The notes: a model not told the origin generated them from the letters alone. DNA of 64,000 bases from Yuukianura sp. NJ FZ-2021 (GCA_046563655.1 CM102290.1:8804001-8868000); one strand, 5' to 3'; positions 23,759 to 63,581 are shown, counted from the first letter of the stretch. Translations and numbers: made by a program.

Positions 23759-23803
23759 CTTTTGCCAACTCTCAAAGTCAACGGAATCTCACGACCCGGC
23801 GTA

Positions 23804-26800
23804 ATGAAAATGTCTGAACCTCGGAAACTGATACCGAGTCTTCCGACTAATGGCATGAGAAGTCACAATGGGACCCTTAGCCCCCCAGCCCATCTCTCAG
23901 GCCCATGTCCAGAAAGTGACCTCAAGGACGAAGAGGACTCGGATATAATGATGGAGTATGAAGAAGATGACGAAGGACAAGCCTACGTTGGTGACACATC
24001 TGAAGACGGCGGAGAAGATGAAGATGAGGCAGGGCTCATGGAGGAAGAGGAATTGCTTGAAGATGAAGATGAGGACTTGGTCCACTCGAAGGGCGAAGAG
24101 GGCGCATTCAAAAATAAGGGGCTGAGGTCAAAGTTCAGCAATCGGCATTCGTTGTTACTTGGTGGCGGGCGGAGTGGAGGGAGTGGGGACAGACTGCATG
24201 ACCTCCGTCAAAATGCCCTGCTCCACCGCCACCACCTCCACCACCATGCTCAGAGTCTGTTTAACAGTGCGAACATCAGTAGTAAGCAGTGCAATGGTGA
24301 CCCCAGTGACAGTCCCCTCCAGGATAAAAAGACTGAAAAGAAACTGTCCTTTAGTGTAGCCTCACTCCTGGGCAAAGATAATGACAAGGACAAGGACAGC
24401 AGTGACGAGAGTACTGGCGAAGGAACCTGCTACAGGTACAAACAGCTTTTCAAACTTTGTAAAACAGTTTTGAAATTTAGAATTTACGTCTTACTTTTTC
24501 AAATTTTAGTGCAGGTTTTTTAGTAGCGATAGGTGGTGAACATTTTATATCAAACAATTGCACTCTAATTTTCCAAAAAAAAAATAGAACTATAAAAATT
24601 AAAGCCAAGAATTTTGCTGTCCGATTCCAAATTCAAAGTTAATATTGATCAAAACATGTTCGGGTAGTGATTAGGGTGCGGATTTTCAAAATTATTTCAT
24701 AAGCGTTCATGATCCGACACTTTTAGTTCGGTTCGTTAAGTCGCCATTGCGGTTCATTTCAAATCTAGATCATTGAAAAGAATTTTTTGAAAACCTCAGA
24801 AACAGGATTTAGTTGAAATGAACTGAAAAAGTGACTTTGACATGTCCCTTGGCGGGTATTTTTCTCTGTCCGTGTCCCTCTGACTGAAGTGTTATGTTGA
24901 TTCGTATCCAATTTCTGAAACCCTTTGAATAAAGAAAAGGGGGGACTTGGGATCTTTGGTCGGTGGACTTGGATTTCTGAACACAAGATTGTATTCCGAG
25001 ATCAGTCAAAAAGTCGGTTGTGGACGCTGTGTCCCCTCAAAGTGACACTTAAGGACCTAATCGCATTTGAAGTGACACTCTCATACCCATGTCCTTCACT
25101 GAATAATTATATTGTTACACCACCTTCAAATCCTAGTGTCCATGTTCGGGAGTCCCTGCAGGGTATTGTTGCTGCTCAAACTATTTTTAGACGTTATAAA
25201 TTGATTCCGCTTTTTCAGAATTTATTTTAAGAAATTTTAAGAGTCATGAGTAATTTATTGGATTCTATTATTTGGTAACTCCATTCATGATTCTGACACT
25301 CTACATGACATTTCGGCTCCTTTAAATAGAAAAAGATTTCATTTGAACAGAAAACGAAAGTGGATTTTCAAAAAGAGCCCGGTTTTCAATATTATGTAAT
25401 CCATAAGAATAACAAGAATTGATAGGGAAGTCTCTCCAGTTCTTTGAACTTAAGTTTGACATTGTCACCAAATTCAATTGAGACGCCGTCCCATGTTTTC
25501 TTAACACAAATAATAAAGTGTCCAAAAGGGCCCTTCAAGGGACATGATCTTCTCCTACACTTTGGCTACCAAAAGACCCTTGCCTTATTGTTGCCCTCTG
25601 AATAAGGCCCTGACCCTGACAAGCCGCCTCGTAAACAAAAAAAAAACACATTTTTAGCATGCTGCTTTGGCTCTTTGAAGAAATTGGAAAGTTTTGTTTC
25701 AAATAAAACTGGAGCAAATCGATATGTGAAACGAAATTAACAAATGGCAGCTCAAATAAATAAATTGTACTAATTAACGTTAGCTGGAGATTGACACCTT
25801 TATTAATCAGAAATGGGCAACAAATCAGTCAAAGGCTAGACAAGGGAAAGCATTTCCCCAATTCGTCATAGTGGTTTTTCTAATCCGACAGCCTGCTACC
25901 CGTCTCACCAATTTCTATATCAACGTGACAATTTTATTAGCATGTAGTTGACATCTTTGTGAAGTTTGGCAATGGACCTCAAACATGTCCTGGAAATTGC
26001 ATACAAATCCAAAGAAAACCGCGGACTCTGGCTCATGAAGAAACCATTCCCACCAATAAAAAAACTTTTTTTTGAAGAAAACGATTGGAGGTGGCTTAAA
26101 ACGTCGTAAAGCTGTAAGAAAAAAAAATCGAAAAATTTGACCAAAAAAAAATTCTTTTTTTTCTTGATCCGAAAACTTGTGGGTCCAGCTTCAAACTCTT
26201 GGAATATTTTTTTTGGCTCATTCCAAATTCAAAAATTGGTCAAAATTTGAAGGAAAAAATTCAGTTGTTCCGTTCAATTGTGATTTAGAAATGTATTGAA
26301 ACAAGAAAAGTTTTTCTGCCAATAGCCAATCAGCATTCGGAATCACACAAACGTTAGTTTGTATAACCCTGTTTCATTTGTTCCTGTCTGTCCGTGGAAA
26401 TAATTGACCACTTTGCCACGCCATGCCATGGTTTAAATGGGACTGAAGAGGGAACAAAGTTAAGTTTTTTAGTGGGCTGATTGATATGCTTAGACTCAGA
26501 ATAGTTGAGTTTGTCTAGTACATTTGGACTTTGTATGAAAAATCGATTTCGGACATACGAGAGTTCTATTACCAACGAGGTTCCCCTTCCTAAAACCTTA
26601 AACGAAAGTTCATGTTCTCCCACAAGGTTACTGGGCAATGCCTCTTAGTTTTGCTAAATTCTGAGGTACTTCTAAGAATACGGAAGAGAATGTTAGCTTT
26701 GTAAGGAACCGCTGAATTTCAAAATTGAAATGATTAGGAACGTGCAGGACTAAATTGTAAGGTCCATAATTCTGGGTGGTTGTGTCTTTCAAGTGGATCT

Positions 26801-29800: not shown

Positions 29801-32394
29801 TTAAACAGAAAAGAAGGTTTTTGCTTTTTTCTACTAAATTATTTTTATGACACTGTCCGTGACGTGGTTTAAACTGGTTGGAGTTTGAGCAAAGGAGCCT
29901 AATTAATGTTTACAATTTGTTAGGTTTATGTTATTAAATTATTTGAAAGTGGGGTGTGTAAAATGTGAAATTTTAAACAAAATGTTGATTTCCAAATTGC
30001 TTTCAGAAGGAATCCTAACGCCCAGGATGCCCGGTCCTCCCGTTCGGTGTCAACTGCGGAAGCACAAACCGAATCGAAAACCGCGGACTCCGTTTACAAC
30101 TCAACAGTTACTAGCACTAGAGAAAAAGTTCAGAGAAAAACAGTATTTATCCATTGCGGAACGAGCCGAATTTTCATCCTCATTGAATCTCACCGAAACG
30201 CAGGTAAGATCACACTTGTTAATGAATTTGAATTATAATTAAATTTAGAATTACTAACAATAGTGTATTACTAAAAATTAAAAAGTGTCTGTTAGGAGTA
30301 GCGAAATGAAAATACGCCTGTCTCCAGGTAAGAATCTTTTGGAGAAACGTAAGGGTCCCCCAAAATTGAAAAATTGCTTCAACTTCCCTCCTTTATTAAG
30401 TGTTCACTGTTGAAGTTTTTGGTTATAAGGCTACCTGCATGTTTAAATTTTCCAAACCTAGGCTATGCACCCTGTCTCTCTGTCAGTAGGGCCTGTAGAG
30501 CACGAAAACTTGTTTTTGTTTTGGATCCGATTGATTGTTGAGCGTCGACTTTTGACTTTGGAAGAGAACGGAGGGAAGATTAGAATGAAAAGTGGAGTTG
30601 GTTGATAAATGACCTCTGTCCAGACCCAACACCAACACAGACCAAAGGTCAAGGAAGCACTTTAAATTAATGGGATCCCTTCATCACAAACCATCTTCAG
30701 CTCCTCAATGTAAATTTACATTTGGACTTGAGGAACCTATTGCATCTTGGAACGTCTGAACCCTGCTAGAGACATGCGCATGACACCTTCAACTTTTTCG
30801 AAATCAGAAGACGTGAGAGGTCAATTATGTTGACAGATTTGTTAATAAGAGGATTCAGTTACTCCCATCACACAAGACGTGTTTAGAAACTTAAATCCTG
30901 CCACTGTGTCAGTGACAAGCAAATTGACTTTTTTTTAAACTAAAGTTGTCAAACCAAAAAAAGTGAGACGCTTCTCCAAGAATGAGAATACGTTGACATT
31001 TTGACGTTTTTAAACCTTGTATGTCTACAAGAGCCCTTAGAAAGCTAATGGAGGGTCCCTTGAATAATTAAGGCCTCTTTGGTATGAAGACAGAAGTTGG
31101 TTGTTGACGTTGGAGAAAGTCCAAAGAAAGTTTAGGAGGCGTCGGTCTACGTTGTTGGCCAATGCACAAAACAAGAAATATGTCACCGTCGAGTATTTGG
31201 ACAGCTAATAATTCCATCAGTATTCATAATCGATTCCACTACAAAAGTCCAATTCCTTAGCACAACAATTACATGATAGTTCTTTTCTAGCAACCTTTCA
31301 CTGTAAAAGACCAGTTCGCAAAGACATTCCTTCCGATCGATACACTCTACCGGCCATTCCTGTACACAATTGATATCGCCCAAGCCTCAACCATTGTCTA
31401 TTCCTTTGAAATATTTTAAAAAGCTCCTTTCGGTTAATTTATCTTCACATTATTGGAAATCGGCTTTAAGTTAAATCTTAATTGAAATTGAAAAGTTTGC
31501 TGGAATAAGAAAGTATGATGGTAGTCCTGATGAGAAGTTGAAATAAGAGATCACTTCTACAGCAGCAGAGAAATAAAAATCGAACAGTGTTACTACTTTT
31601 ACTAAGATTTGAACAGATTTACGATTTCTTAGGAATGGTAGTAGGAGAAGGCCAACTTAAAAGTTACAGCTATTAATTCACCTTTCATCTTGGCTTCCTT
31701 GGTGTCCTTGTCATTCGCTGTTTTTTGTACGACGTGACGCTGCTGACACGTAGGGACCTGGAGACGCAGCGCAGAAGAAAGATCATCAGGCTCTGCATTC
31801 TTCTGCTGAGGTTTACTTATCTTCATCTCGCTTCCCTAGACTGGTCTTTTGTAATTTTGTATAGAAGACTCTTCTATAGAAATCCCACTTTTTAGGCAGT
31901 AAAAACATTCCTGATTGAATCCAAAGTGAATCGAAGTGAATTAAAAAGGAATCGAAACTGGTGAAATTTTTTTTATTATTTGAAAAATAAAACCAGGGAT
32001 TTATTAAATATTTGACTTGATATGAGAATATTACTCAAAATTTTTAAGAGAAAGAAGACGCTTTTGTTTTAAAATTGGTTGATGAACATGTATAATTTAT
32101 TTCAAAATTTTAAATCAAACATTGTTTGGGTTTCTTTTGCAAAGTTTTGTTTTTATTTTTTAGGTAAAAATTTGGTTCCAAAATCGTCGAGCCAAAGCCA
32201 AAAGACTTCAGGAAGCGGAAATTGAGAAGCTACGGCTTGCAGCAGCTCGTCCATTACTTCCGCCCTCACTCGGTGGGCTTCTTCCGCCGGTGGGTCCAGG
32301 AACCCTCATGAACCACCACCACTCACTCCTCGCTCGATCGGCCCACCTCAATGCAGCATTCAGCCTCAACAACCTCCTCAATCCCAAGATGTAG
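23804..32394 (+). CDS. Msx: Msx (msh/Drop) NK-class homeobox transcription factor, 411 aa; exons 23804-24435, 27081-27256, 30007-30203, 32164-32394
   Basis: Exons 3+4 give [75 protein letters not shown], the diagnostic Msx homeodomain and flanks. Exon 1 carries the eh1 motif FSVASLL. All introns are GT-AG with matching phases (2,1,0); total 1236 nt ending in TAG. The start could be ATG 23804 or 23810. Confidence 0.95.
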
Positions 32395-51996: not shown

Positions 51997-54900
51997 TTAT
52001 ACTGTTGATTCATAAATTGTAATTTGAATTAATCTAGGTTCATCCGACTCTACCACATCCATGTCAAATCCATCTTGATTCTCCCAAAATTTCTTCCAAA
52101 TGCTCCCCTCTCGTTTCGTTTTCCCGGAATTCATAGAGGCGAGTGCTTTCTTCAAAACTCGTAAGTCCTGCAGCACGTTTACATCCAAGTTAATGTTGTC
52201 ACCATACCTTTCGTTTTAAAAAATACAATAGAGATTAGTGAAAGTCTTAGTCTGAAGTACTATTTTGTAGCGATAAAAGTTATAAGTACTTTCGTAGCGT
52301 GTCTGCCAGCGGTCCCGACAAGCCCTGCAACCGCATCGAAAGTTCTCGCATCTTCTTCCACGAATCAGCGTATTGGATTCGAACCAGTTCAATCGCTGTT
52401 GACATCACAGCCAGCCCAATCATTATGTACAGAATTACAACAACTATGGTGATCCTATGTTCGCCGTCTAAAATTTAACGAATGTTATCAATTTTCATGT
52501 TCTTCGTCATGTTCCGGACACATAAGACTGCCCGAGCTTCAAAATGAATGTGATTACGTTTAGGAAATCTTACTTGGAACTAAGTCACCGAATCCAATTG
52601 TTGTGATTGTTATGAAAGAAAAGTAAAGCGCCTCAAAGAACTCCCAATTTTCAAGGGAAACAAACAGTGCACCACCAAGGACGATGTACAGTAGCATAAT
52701 CACAATTGTTCCACCAACAGTAACGCACTTTCCTACAAAAAAAAATCATAGGGAAAATTGAAATTTTTTAATTTCGCTTCACCAGAATTAATTAATTCAC
52801 TACTTAGAATTGATTAAACCCTTGAAAAATTTGTTACATCCAGAACCAGAAATTACATGTGGTAAATACCAAAGTACAAAATATTTTTCAAATTAGTTGC
52901 AAAAAACACCAATTTTTCAATTTTGCAATCTCTGTTTATGTTTGACAGAACTTATTTTCCTACTGCCCGTGATTGTTTTTACAGAAATTTTTATTGCTTA
53001 GCATATTTCCATTGGAATCTGGAAGAGGCAAATGAAATTTGGCAGTTGACACTTGTTTACAACCGTAAAATGCCGCTGAGAGCCGCACTCAAAAGTTCTT
53101 TGTAAACGATATGCCTCACACCGTGAAGTTCATTTTATAACCCCCCTACGTCGAATCACGTCAACTACAACCTTTGCTTTTACATTGATTTGAAAACAAC
53201 CGAATTTTCATCAAAATCAAACCAGAAAGTTCTTTCAAAATTAAATGCAATGTTATCCATACCATATTTTTTGCTGATTTTGGAAAAGACTGATTTCCGG
53301 GGAAAGTGCGTTTTAATTTTCTTGTACGAGTAGCTTAGAAGGGCTGCCATCATTTTCCCCAGGTCTGCTATCACAGTCAGTGTAAGTGGGATCCCAATCA
53401 AGGCGAAGAAAATACAAAAGACTCTGCCTTCCACCGTTTGCGGAGCCATATTACCATAACCTGTTGAATTCAAAATTAAAACCACCATTCAGTTCATATG
53501 TTGGATAATGCTTCGCTAGGGGGCCTCCTTATAAGTAGTGGATATGATCTAGTGAACTTTGACCTCCGGAAATGAACAATGAAAGTGCCAAGACTAAAAT
53601 GGTCTTGGTCTTCCGAGTATTATTGGCGGAATTTTTAAAAAGATCAAAGGTCAAAGCATGTCAAAATACTTGACTCAAGCCGCCACTCATGTCTTTTAGA
53701 ACTGACAGACAGTTCACAGAGACGCTTCACTGAAAACGAAATATTTTCAGGGAAACGACAACTTAAAAAGAACACTTTTTTGCAGGACTGTAAAATCTTC
53801 AGTGTAAATTCAATTCATACCACTGCAAAAGCAACAAGACAACCCTATACTAGTGATAAAAATAGTCTTCTCAAAATTTAGTAAGATTTAGGACCCTTGA
53901 TGTTTCTAGTGGATTTACGGTAATGAAATCTCACCTATTGTAGTGAGCACCGTGGATGCGAAGAAAGCAGATTGGTGGTAGTTCCATCTGAGAGTTTGAA
54001 TTTCTTCAACATTTGTTGCGTTGAGAAACAGCATCAAGTCATTGTTAAATAGATCGTCAATTACATTCTCGTAGTTTCGGAGGTATCCTTCCAGAGTTCG
54101 ATCGAGACCATTAACCTAAAAACGAACATTCAACATAACATTCGGTTTCTCGTTTCATATTTACACTTTTATTAATCATAGGAGGAAAGAGAGTCTAGGC
54201 AATGCGCTCAGCCAAGCGGCTCTGTTTCAATAATCTCCGCCAACGCATCTAATGTAAGCTGTTCAAACCAAAATTATGGGTCATGGGGTACATTTTATAG
54301 CATCTAAAATTTATGTAACTTTACTTTTTTAAAGACAGAATGGTCTAAGCTATATGTCAAAGGAAGATCGCATCTTATTTATTGAATTAAATTACTTTTC
54401 ATACTTTATCTGATTTTGCTTTTCTTCTCCATTGCTATTTGCCCTACAAAACTTTCCCTTTTAGATTTTTTGTATTTTTCAGCAAAAACCAAACAGTTTC
54501 ATTGAAAGCAATTTTTAGACGTAGGAAAATATCTCACTGAATAATAGCTGAAGAATGAGTAGATAAAATTATTTTTTGTTAATTAGTTATTGTTTAGACT
54601 ATAAAGTTTAAAATATTTGTTTGAATTTTACTGACGCCACTTATAATTGCAGTTTTGAATTCGGTTCTTGCATGATGCAGTTCGTCGAACGTCAATTTCT
54701 TCTGCTTCGTTTCCTCTCCTGATTCAAGAGCCATGAAAGCCTAGAACACACAAATTTGAATTGATTTAATAAAGTTGGATGGCTCATTTACTAATTAAAA
54801 GTCATCTCATCATTAATTCTACTTTAAAGTTTTACGCTCCACCTACTACTCCAGTCTTCAATTCCAAACTAATTTTGTTACGGCACGGAAGTTAGGAAAA

Positions 54901-60910: not shown

Positions 60911-62101
60911 CATTTCATCGTCATGTTTAAAATATACCATACGAAACAGTATGAGTAATAAAGTACGCTTACATATAAACTGTTGATAACATAGGTAATC
61001 CGATATAGAAGGAAACAAAACGCCACGTTGTTTAAAGAAAAACCAAGCATTGGCCTCCATTCGCTCCGACTTGCGATAGGCATTCCTTGTAAACGTGAGG
61101 CCCACGTCATGCATTTCTTTATCAGAAAGTAGCCGAAACCAATTCATTTAATTTCATTTAATCACAATCATAATTTTTAAATCATTGTATTACAACACCT
61201 TCTAGTAGTAGAAGTAGAAGGCTCAAGTTAGAACAAGTCAGTGACCTAAGACTTGTTCAATCCGTCTTTTTGGATAAGAATTTCATGGACAGATAGCGGG
61301 AGAGGTCAACGAACGCTTTGGTATGTACACTCCCGAACACAAGAGCACTGTTATTCTCGACTCCAAGTGAAGTATACTGAATACAACACAAGTACATGTT
61401 TGCAAAAAATCCTTGTTGTAAAAGTCTAAACTCCTGTTAGCAGTGGAAAGGAGAGTCTGGCCTCCGTTATCGGGTTTTTAGCAGAAGAATTTCCAGGGCA
61501 GGCGGCGAGACAGGTCATCGCCCGCTTTGGAATGCACGCTTCCACCTACAGCACCGAGAGAAGAATGCTCAATGCTGTAAAGGAATTTGACCTCAGTTGA
61601 CCCTGCCAACTCACCCAAAGAGGTGGAGAAGTTTCAGCGGGGGCGAGGGAGCGATGGGTGGTTTTGGACGCTGGTTTTCTTTGTTTGGCAAGCGAGGAGG
61701 AGGGGCGTAGAGGGCGGAGACCAATGGTATGCTGCCATGCAAGGAACCCGGAGCGGAGCAAAATCCGAAAAACTAGAAAAGGAAGACAAGAAACTGAAAT
61801 CCTTTGTTGCCTCATCTGAATCAGCAGTTGAATGATCTACGAGCAGCTTGTCCTCAGTGAACTACTACATAATTTCTCACATCATCTTTTGTTGATCGTT
61901 GTAGTTTTTGTAAGTCTCAATTCAATCACTATTCACTAATCAATTTCGTGTGAACCACGGTAATCTTTATTTGAGATTGAAAGACGTACACCTTCGTTCA
62001 GCTTACGTAATCTGGAAAGTACAAACCGATTTGTTTTTGAACAGGTCTCGCAGATCTCCTTGTCGTGACTTGGAAGATTGACAGTCAGTCTCAGCGGAAA
62101 T

Positions 62102-62931
62102 ATGGCAGCAGCAGCGGCTGAGAACATTCCAAAATTCAAGGTGGTTCTTGTTGGCGACGGAGGAACGGGAAAAACTACGTTTGTAAAGCGGCACTTGACT
62201 GGAGAGTTCGAGAAAAAGTACGTGGCGACACTTGGAGTAGAAGTTCATCCGCTAATTTTCAACACCACTCGCGGAGCCATTCGATTTGAAGTCTGGGATA
62301 CTGCAGGGCAGGAGAGAACTGGCGCCCTTCGGGATTCCCATTACGTTGATGTAAGACTACGCGATCAGCTGAATTTGAATATTCCCGCTGAAGAGAATAA
62401 TGTTTTAGTAATGTTCTTTTCTTTTCATTGTTGCATTCAGGGGAAATGTGCGATCATCATGTTTGATGTCACTAGCCGGGTAACATACAAAAACGTAGCC
62501 AACTGGTATCGTGATTTGGTGCGTGTATGTGAGGACATCCCGGTAGTTCTTTGCGGCAACAAGGTTGATATCAAGGATCGGAAGGTTAAAGCCAAGAGTA
62601 TTCTGTTCCACCGGAAGAAGAATATCCAGTACTACGACATCTCCGCCAAGAGTAACTATAACTTTGAGAAGCCATTCCTGTGGTTGGCTAGGAAGTTGCT
62701 GGGTGATCCCCAATTAGAATTGACCGCCATGCCCGTTTTAGCACCACCGGAAGTTTCCATCGCTCCCGAGTTACAGAATGAAATGCAAAATCAACTTAAG
62801 GTAAGCATGCGCTGTTCTTTTCCTTTGTTGTACTAAATTAAGCACTCAATTTTTGAAACACCCACTCTACCTCTTTTTTACAGGAAGCTGAGGCGATCCC
62901 GCTTCCGGATGATGTCGACGACGACCTTTGA
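62102..62931 (+). CDS. Ran: Ran GTPase with divergent switch II, 218 aa; exons 62102-62350, 62441-62800, 62884-62931
   Basis: [71 protein letters not shown] and acidic tail LPDDVDDDL*. Introns 62351-62440 and 62801-62883 are GT-AG, phase 0. Probable 5'UTR intron at 61910-62044; AATAAA at 63163. Confidence 0.96.
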
Positions 62932-63581
62932 ATTCCACCACCACAACAACAACACAAAATCAATTCTTCGCTCATTCGTGATGAAATCCTTAGGGAAGCT
63001 AAATATTAGCATTTGAAACGAATTTCAACTTTTGGAGGGGATTTAGAACTACTTAATTTGTCTAAGCATTGTCCAAAATCTTGTTACATACTGTCACGGT
63101 TTCATTTCTGTGGCGCCAAAATTTTTTTGGGATACATAGTTCCATTTGCTAGGTGTAACCTTAATAAATCCAGATTAACTCATACCTAATAAATCTGTAT
63201 TGAATTTGGAGTTTGAAGAGTATAACTGGAACCTATTATTCCAGTAGTCCTTCGTTTGCATTTGGTTGAGTTAACTTTACTTAATTTACAAAAATTAGAC
63301 AGCTTGACTTTCTGGCAATTACTTTATTTCAATTATAAAACTTCCTTCTAATTACTGTTCGTGTAATTAGTAGTATCTTCATGAGACAATTTACTCGAAT
63401 TTATGTGACAAACAATGACTTGATTTACATTCGAATATTGAAAATTGGCAAAGTAAGACCAATTTCGGACCAAATTGTTTGTAAAACGTTTAAACAGTCT
63501 AAAGTATTTTGTACTTCTTCACATTGCGCGTTTGGAAGGTTCTTTGAAATCATGAGTTTAAAGTTAACCGGCGAATATTCT

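Follow-up and report, generated by a model that had tools for sequence, protein, structure and literature searches.

The stretch of DNA analysed here, 64,000 nucleotides in length (hereafter the window), contains a gene for Ran in which eight of the 14 residues of the switch II loop differ from those of the canonical protein, four of them being replaced by amino acids that occur in none of 256 other Rans. Few eukaryotic proteins are as highly conserved as Ran, and in switch II it hardly varies at all. A second, canonical-like form of Ran is present in contigs of the same organism, and we consider it rather probable that the window gene is a functional, specialised paralog, in which the changes would impair the binding of NTF2 and alter the binding of regulators and karyopherins. 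The window locus would then be the specialised copy that has kept the ancestral intron-bearing structure, and a canonical Ran without intron 1, located elsewhere in the genome, would presumably run the housekeeping cycle.

Gene structure and family assignment

The window gene was compared with public contigs, and with contigs only, from sequencing runs, of which X1, X2 and X5 represent one organism (organism A) and X4 represents another study and another organism (organism B). X1 was taken as DNA-like on account of its contigs of up to 275 kb, and X2 is DNA-like as well; the joints in the contigs of X5 suggest that this run is derived from RNA. The library types of these runs are not on record.

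The gene lies on the plus strand and comprises three coding exons (62102-62350, 62441-62800 and 62884-62931; 218 codons in total) and three introns, namely one in the 5'UTR and two in the coding sequence, all with GT..AG boundaries. The 5'UTR exon extends upstream of position 61880 and is verified at its 3' end (61880..61909), where the 30-letter consensus of a loose end in X5, preceding 62045, has a single exact match in the window, followed by GT at 61910. The 5'UTR intron (61910..62044) is absent from an X5 contig, which joins 61909 to 62045. The start-codon exon (62045..62350) encodes residues 1-83 in its coding part (62102-62350) and carries the P-loop, switch I, the DTAGQ motif and most of switch II; in the translation, WDTAGQE (W65-E71) corresponds to 62294-62314, and the rewritten switch II codons R72-D83 follow at 62315..62350. 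Intron 1 (62351..62440; 90 nt, phase 0) preserves the reading frame and contains no stop codon; an X5 contig from a sister form of the gene has it excised precisely (joint 62349/50 to 62441). Coding exon 2 (62441..62800; residues 84-203) begins with G84-K85 (62441-62446), the end of the changed stretch, and continues with CAIIMF from 62447; it further encodes A103 and Y106 on helix alpha-3, NKVD, HRKK and SAK. At the ends of the codons A103-Y106 (62498..62509), P and H are found both in the consensus shared by at least 90% of Rans and in the second Ran form. Intron 2 (62801..62883) falls in the interval where the contigs of the second form link 62754 to 62887, and the last coding exon (62884..62931) ends in the stop codon TGA. 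The part of the 3'UTR that can be aligned with the second form (62932..63097) is about 90-93% identical to it, and AATAAA motifs occur downstream of the coding sequence at 63163 and 63188. The first-pass annotation had described an intact, intron-containing gene, and the canonical splice sites together with the full set of nucleotide-binding motifs bear this out. A search for a tandem copy of Ran by tblastn within the 64-kb window was negative, and a scan against Rfam gave 0 matches.

Reading through intron 1 results in a frame of 255 codons, in which the last two intron codons encode I-Q and are aligned by HMMER to the I-Q of the canonical protein. We take this I-Q, derived from the last six letters of the intron, as a chance resemblance. 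The idea that intron 1 is a degenerate duplicate of the adjacent exon was rejected: its local alignments were no better than those of 229 of 300 and 138 of 300 shuffles.

By homology, the gene belongs to the Ran family, as indicated by a Ras-type G domain, full-length Ran relatives and the Ran-specific basic patch and acidic tail. The Pfam family Ras (PF00071) matches the window protein with an E-value of 4.5e-41, and the solved Ran chains are its best matches in the PDB (E 1.5e-101), where 45 of the 45 sequences with E <= 1e-40 are Ran or Gsp1. In the protein search, 7397 of the 8000 scored candidates had E <= 0.001, and among the 120 matches listed, nearly all those with a name from the source are Ran or GTP-binding nuclear protein. 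The spliced window protein is 76-79% identical to its 40 nearest Rans, and its C-terminal pattern is closest to those of an oribatid mite, a springtail and the JGI protein P0008. Together with the Atlas clusters near the homeobox and potassium-channel genes of the window (see below), in which Nematoda or Arthropoda are the commonest taxa, this pattern points weakly to an ecdysozoan, probably not Drosophila, as the source. The spliced translation contains G1 (GDGGTGKT), G3 (DTAGQ), G4 (NKVD) and G5 (SAK), as well as T43 and Q70 (human T42 and Q69), the Ran-specific basic patch HRKK at positions 140-143 and the acidic tail PDDVDDDL, and it has no CAAX box. The earlier statement that the P-loop, T42 of switch I, the catalytic Q69, NKVD, SAK, the basic patch and the acidic tail are intact thus agrees with the spliced translation. 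Judged by its sequence, the window protein keeps everything required for GTP binding and hydrolysis. It shares the fold family, the nucleotide-binding motifs, the basic patch and the acidic tail with canonical Ran and Gsp1 (1i2m_A, 3gj0_A and the yeast 3m1i_A). On the other hand, the near-invariant switch II of a housekeeping orthologue, KFGGLRDGYYIQ, with Phe72 for the NTF2 pocket, is not what the window Ran carries. Nor does the window Ran appear to be a single essential Ran, given the canonical-like second form in the contigs of the same organism.

The altered switch II loop

According to the HMMER alignment to the solved human Ran chains, residue n of the window protein corresponds to human residue n-1. 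In human numbering, the loop carries K71R, F72T, G74A, G78S, Y79H, I81V, Q82D and Q84K; these are the eight substitutions listed by the first-pass annotation for 62290-62450, and both the translation and the HMMER alignment reproduce them. A consensus was derived from 65 full-length Rans (210-226 aa) among the 184 proteins returned by the searches. The window protein departs from it at nine of the 121 columns in which at least 90% of these 65 sequences agree, and six of the nine departures fall within residues 72-82. The remaining three are A103, Y106 and I145, which in human numbering correspond to P102A, H105Y and L144I. Only three of 20000 shuffles reached six departures in any window of 11 residues, which indicates that the changes are clustered more than by chance. 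The earlier description of a "selectively rewritten" loop fits this clustering, but the contrast with the rest of the gene may partly reflect homogenisation of the latter by gene conversion (see below).

To assess how unusual the individual replacements are, we compared the loop with 256 switch II segments, 178 from proteins and 78 from metagenome loci. Human-numbered T72, S78, H79 and D82 (T73, S79, H80 and D83 of the window protein) were found in 0 of the 256 segments each, whereas R71 occurs in five, A74 in three, V81 in four and K84 in six. Hence, among these segments, half of the listed changes occur naturally in Rans and half are without a match. The first-pass annotation had presented the whole segment as nearly invariant across eukaryotes; of the listed changes, F72T, G78S, Y79H and Q82D fall outside the variation sampled, and K71R, I81V and Q84K lie inside the natural variation of Ran. 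When residues 44-83 were searched against 5.8 billion proteins, 75 of the 76 candidates were significant, and none exceeded 77% identity. Likewise, a metagenome scan that included the pattern DTAGQERT revealed the RT...SH loop in none of the best 80 of 406 confirmed loci; searches of this kind reach only those sequences that share words or patterns with the query. A different natural variant of the loop, (K/R)L(A/S/G)(A/C/G)LRDGYYIG, with Leu in place of Phe72, was observed in the Ran genes at seven metagenome loci (L025, L050, L068, L071, L076, L078 and L079).

An error of assembly or sequencing in the switch II codons, which the first-pass annotation had named as a possible refutation, has a negligible probability, and nothing in its favour was found. 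An X1 contig shows 0 differences from the window over 62258-62476, although X1 is possibly the assembly's own sample and hence not an independent witness. Loops of this type, with differences of their own, are also found in contigs from X2, X4 and X5. In particular, X4 contains a 3006-nt contig that runs colinearly with the window gene, a diverged intron 1 included, and aligns through switch II, where the only listed differences are synonymous (A75 and H80; 16 of the 25 differences of this contig over 61900-62378 are unlisted). The X1 identity and the X4 alignment confirm that the altered loop is no slip of the assembly.

Two forms of Ran in the same organism

The second form of Ran was found in contigs of all three runs of organism A (X1, X2 and X5). 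It differs from the window at 14 positions in 191 nt of exon 2 and at 16 positions in 195 nt that cover the stop codon and the 3'UTR (62903-63097; X1 record 8 and X2 record 16), and it is about 92% identical to the window in the flanks and the 3'UTR. In the DNA-like runs X1 and X2 it joins 62315 to 62447 via exactly 41 letters. Because 41 equals the 35+6 exon letters that flank intron 1 in the window gene (the upstream 35 lying within 62315..62350), the second form is devoid of intron 1. The 41 letters themselves are unalignable, which implies that the switch II of the second form is too different from that of the window to align. Outside the loop, the second form possesses P103, H106, I118, V138 and L145, as opposed to A103, Y106, V118, L138 and I145 in the window, and it agrees with the consensus at five of these five positions. 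At two further positions that distinguish the two forms (E63D and D115G), the consensus is N and is found in neither of them. Since the second form matches the consensus at all five sites that can be polarised, the window gene is the derived copy and the second form is canonical-like. From this canonical state elsewhere we infer that its switch II is also of the canonical KFGGLRDGYYIQG type, as opposed to the RTGAL type of the window. These five residues, together with an alignment that breaks exactly over switch II, uphold the earlier proposal of a duplicated gene, as opposed to a sole Ran.

Could the window nevertheless harbour the only Ran locus, the second form being a divergent allele or haplotype, or else the gene of another organism in the sample? 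The depths of X1 contigs are similar for the second form and the window form (25-32 versus 28-36) and also for the flanking long contigs (25-36), as would be expected of two haplotypes of a very heterozygous genome. However, intron 1 is found in one form and is missing from the other, and the 5'UTR part has no listed contig of the second form. An unrelated organism as the source is at odds with the similarity of the 3'UTRs, and both forms recur in three runs of organism A, while a separate contig resembling the canonical-like form is also present in organism B (X4 record 18). We therefore regard a single locus as very improbable.

A third form of Ran, the sister form mentioned above, was detected in X2 and X5 (window 62224-62654). 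Relative to the window it carries R72T, D83E and A103V, and its loop may differ further, as five of its 12 differences in 62224-62349 are unlisted. It is near-identical to the window at 61900-62140, yet its exon 2 departs from that of the window at 24 positions in 202 nt, eight of which it has in common with the canonical-like form, so that window-like and canonical-like variants are combined in it as a mosaic. In X2 its sequence runs on into intron 1, and in X5 this intron has been removed precisely at 62350|62441. The third form may represent an allele or a further locus. At discriminating sites, X5 contains the sister form (R72T, D83E) and the canonical-like form, with contig depths of 31 and 753, respectively, although contig depth does not rank expression. 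The exact haplotype of the window was not seen at these sites in X5, which, consisting of contigs, cannot show absence. For the same run, the lack of cover over the introns, the upstream region and 62679-62800 was given no weight.

Evolutionary history of the two copies

The position of intron 1 suggests which of the two copies retains the older structure. Among the metagenome loci with a frame break in switch II, the canonical Rans of L020, L022 and L032 break in phase 0 directly after YYIQ, and in L020 and L032 the exon resumes after the intron at GQCAII, i.e. at the position of intron 1 in the window. Other Rans have introns elsewhere within switch II: L048 and L049 are interrupted directly after DTAGQE, and L045 after LRDG. 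Since the site of intron 1 is common to the canonical Rans of other eukaryotes, the window gene retains the ancestral structure, and the canonical-like copy has lost the old intron, either by retroposition or by intron loss. As to the status of the canonical-like form as a processed copy, intron 1 is absent from it in the DNA-like X1 and X2, and the letters between 62754 and 62887, where intron 2 would lie, are unread. Thus, on this comparison, the intron-bearing copy of ancestral structure is the one that diverged.

The mode of divergence was assessed from the substitutions. In 63 codons of exon 2, the comparison of the window gene and the second form yields dS of 0.23, dN of 0.041 and omega of 0.18, and the differences (6N:8S) include fewer nonsynonymous changes than expected under neutrality (P 0.004). 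The listed coding differences from the organism-B contig amount to 3N:7S (P 0.0013), the two inside switch II being synonymous; 46 differences remained unlisted in the contig comparison, and this ratio is therefore incomplete and perhaps biased. In switch II, by contrast, at least 11 nonsynonymous base changes are needed in 31.3 sites, where 1.26 would be expected at the nonsynonymous rate of exon 2 (P 1e-7), 3.1 at the synonymous rate of one lineage (P 4e-4) and 6.2 at that of two lineages (P 0.05). Provided that the 41 letters of the second form are canonical, the loop has changed far faster than the remaining protein and, on the same proviso, probably also faster than neutral. For the window lineage taken alone, about 5-6 nonsynonymous changes face roughly half of the eight synonymous ones in the 63 codons, and counts this small do not reject neutrality; five of the five polarisable replacements in exon 2 occurred on this lineage.

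These numbers bear on an alternative in which the window gene is a decaying parental copy: the intron-less, probably retroposed, canonical Ran would have taken over the essential role, and the changes in switch II would reflect loss of function under relaxed selection. The replacement of residues otherwise invariant, to states found in 0 of 256 other Rans, is expected of a decaying copy too and in this respect counts against a functional protein. The concentration of polarisable replacements on the window lineage, the failure to reject neutrality for this lineage and the lack of intron 1 in the canonical form in DNA-like runs are also compatible with decay. Moreover, pseudogenised Ran duplicates are common in Drosophila, numbering at least 13 in the available part of PMC8645118. 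However, the window gene has an uninterrupted reading frame, three intact intron boundaries and the full set of G motifs, omega in exon 2 is 0.18, and the changes are clustered instead of being spread over the protein. In addition, the colinear copy of the second organism keeps the altered loop with only synonymous changes listed there, and X5 contains a spliced version of the sister form, the loop of which is of the same type. Decay of the window gene thus seems unlikely to us.

Alternatively, the copies may be old and deeply diverged, with the exon interiors repeatedly homogenised by gene conversion from the intron-less copy and the stretches adjoining the introns, for which that copy lacks a homologous template, having escaped with their older divergence, a scenario that would fit a functional as well as a decaying gene. 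Both unalignable stretches do adjoin introns (62316-62350 and 62441-62446 at intron 1; 62755-62800 and 62884-62886 at intron 2), the third form is a mosaic, and the divergence of the 3'UTR (about 7-10%) is lower than the dS of 0.23 in exon 2. Yet only six and three letters are unalignable downstream of the introns, too few for a symmetric edge effect, and the C-terminal stretch is variable in all Rans. Furthermore, conversion leaves unexplained the eight replacements at otherwise invariant sites, unless selection or relaxation has also acted. We consider conversion a possible, albeit doubtful, explanation of the pattern. If the change of the loop turned out to be only decay or a conversion mosaic, the window gene would be an ordinary duplicate.

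Comparison with other Ran duplicates

Fast-evolving duplicates of Ran are best known from Drosophila, where, in the part of the study by Mirsalehi et al. (2021, PMC8645118) available to us, Ran-like evolves with omega of 0.47-0.52 as compared to 0.0001-0.015 for Ran. Retroposition accounts for 12 of the 13 Drosophila duplications described there, and it is the retrocopy that evolves fast. The same text reports Ran duplicates of more than 80% identity in only one of 29 non-Drosophila insects and, from a survey of 51 genomes, recurrent duplication and fast evolution of Ran-pathway genes almost confined to flies. The window Ran resembles Ran-like of Drosophila in being an extra copy beside a conserved Ran and in evolving faster, with all polarisable replacements of exon 2 on its own lineage. 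Unlike the typical Ran-like, it is not an intron-less retrocopy, having three introns with intron 1 at the ancestral position. The two cases, as far as the cited part of PMC8645118 allows them to be compared, are mirror images, with the intron-bearing copy diverged here and the intron-less copy there. The first-pass annotation had invoked the Drosophila duplicates as a frame for the window gene, and they serve well as an analogy, but no further, since the relation between the divergent copy and the canonical copy (without intron 1 in the DNA-like runs) is reversed. The window Ran is, then, another fast-evolving Ran duplicate, of a class already known, with an unusual direction of divergence.

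Changes in the loop of a Ran duplicate have a precedent, as switch II is altered in named Ran-like proteins of D. suzukii (G74C) and D. gunungcola (L75M). The switch II of a Glossina protein reads KYGGLRDCYYVQ. A Ran-like protein of Drosophila subpulchrella (P0181) displays, in the alignment, a heavily changed switch II of its own, QENC-LLGHDCYIQ.

The displacement of a parental gene by an intron-less copy is also on record: replacement of parental genes by retrogenes is described in the consulted part of PMC5803294, and in the Drosophila pair e(y)2/e(y)2b it is the retrogene that came to fill the general role (PMC8645118, as far as cited here). As in that pair, the intron-less copy appears to hold the general function here and the intron-bearing parental gene to change. 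The difference is that for the canonical Ran of organism A only the loss of intron 1 has been demonstrated, and retroposition is putative.

Predicted functional consequences

The interpretation of the window gene as a functional, specialised paralog starts from its sequence and gene structure, the canonical sister copy, the asymmetric divergence and the splicing of the sister form, and extends by prediction to all changes of binding, to localisation and to tissue. The remodelled surface comprises the switch II loop, with its eight changes, and the first part of helix alpha-3 (P to A and H to Y). Both elements are also turned towards RCC1 and RanGAP (structures 1i2m and 1k5d). In its GDP form, the window Ran would fail to dock properly on NTF2, given that Thr replaces the pocket-entering Phe and Arg the Lys next to it, and without such docking its active nuclear re-import would be lost. 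Exchange, hydrolysis and receptor binding would probably be shifted too, since the loop is directed towards RCC1 and RanGAP as well as towards the N-terminal HEAT repeats of importin-beta-type receptors. The outcome would be a GTPase-competent Ran that operates outside the NTF2-driven gradient, beside the canonical cycle and probably in a restricted tissue or stage.

These predictions are in line with studies of the canonical protein, cited here for the parts of the texts at hand. Phe72 is accommodated in a hydrophobic pocket of NTF2 (PMC4758718), and in human Ran the single change K71R suffices for a marked drop in NTF2 binding (Knyphausen et al. 2015, PMC4905271). Acetylation of the same residue (AcK71) abolishes NTF2 binding, makes Ran cytosolic and slows RCC1-catalysed exchange (PMC4905271). 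Transportin recognises residues 65-80 of switch II through its HEAT repeats H1-H3, and importin-beta does likewise (PMC7930572). The human K71 variants (AcK71, K71Q and K71R; PMC4905271) affect a residue that is also changed in the window Ran, but they are single engineered or post-translational changes in canonical Ran, whereas in the window K71R is combined with F72T and six further replacements, all fixed in the gene.

An intact natural copy with Phe72 replaced, present beside a normal copy, would amount to a ready-made separation-of-function allele, and the window Ran could show which activities of Ran need NTF2-driven import. It would also carry the pattern of repeatedly duplicated, rapidly evolving Ran-pathway genes outside Drosophila, with the twist that it is the gene of parental structure that has changed. 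It is tempting to go further and to suppose that the ancestral Ran, once released by the intron-less canonical copy, came under positive selection at the face that contacts NTF2, RCC1 and karyopherins (switch II and alpha-3), and that several deeply diverged versions (the window form, the R72T/D83E form and the organism-B form) are segregating or duplicated. Such a pattern would be the mark of an arms race outside Drosophila, such as meiotic drive or its suppression, along with a second Ran cycle independent of NTF2. We hold this extended scenario to be speculative and rather improbable; if true, the Ran-like story of Drosophila would have been replayed independently and in mirror image.

Other features of the window

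Just upstream of the 5'UTR exon of Ran, the plus strand contains a two-copy direct repeat of 75 nt (61260-61334 and 61469-61543; 72% identity, spacing 209). The copies lie in short open frames that encode similar peptides, and the frames scanned gave no match in Pfam. The peptides may resemble a helix-turn-helix of the transposase type.

A homeobox gene with long introns occupies 23759-24520, 29907-30239 and 32164-32391 on the plus strand. Its first exon, of 254 aa, has a single relative, 56% identical, in 5.8 billion proteins, which suggests a poorly sampled lineage. The homeodomain is split between two exons after position 44/45, and its neighbours in the Atlas are clusters of homeodomains, one of them named TLX3-like. 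On the minus strand, a gene for a two-pore-domain potassium channel is represented by one exon at 53183-53488 (E 6.5e-12 for Pfam Ion_trans_2), the nearest Atlas clusters of which are commonest in Nematoda and Arthropoda.
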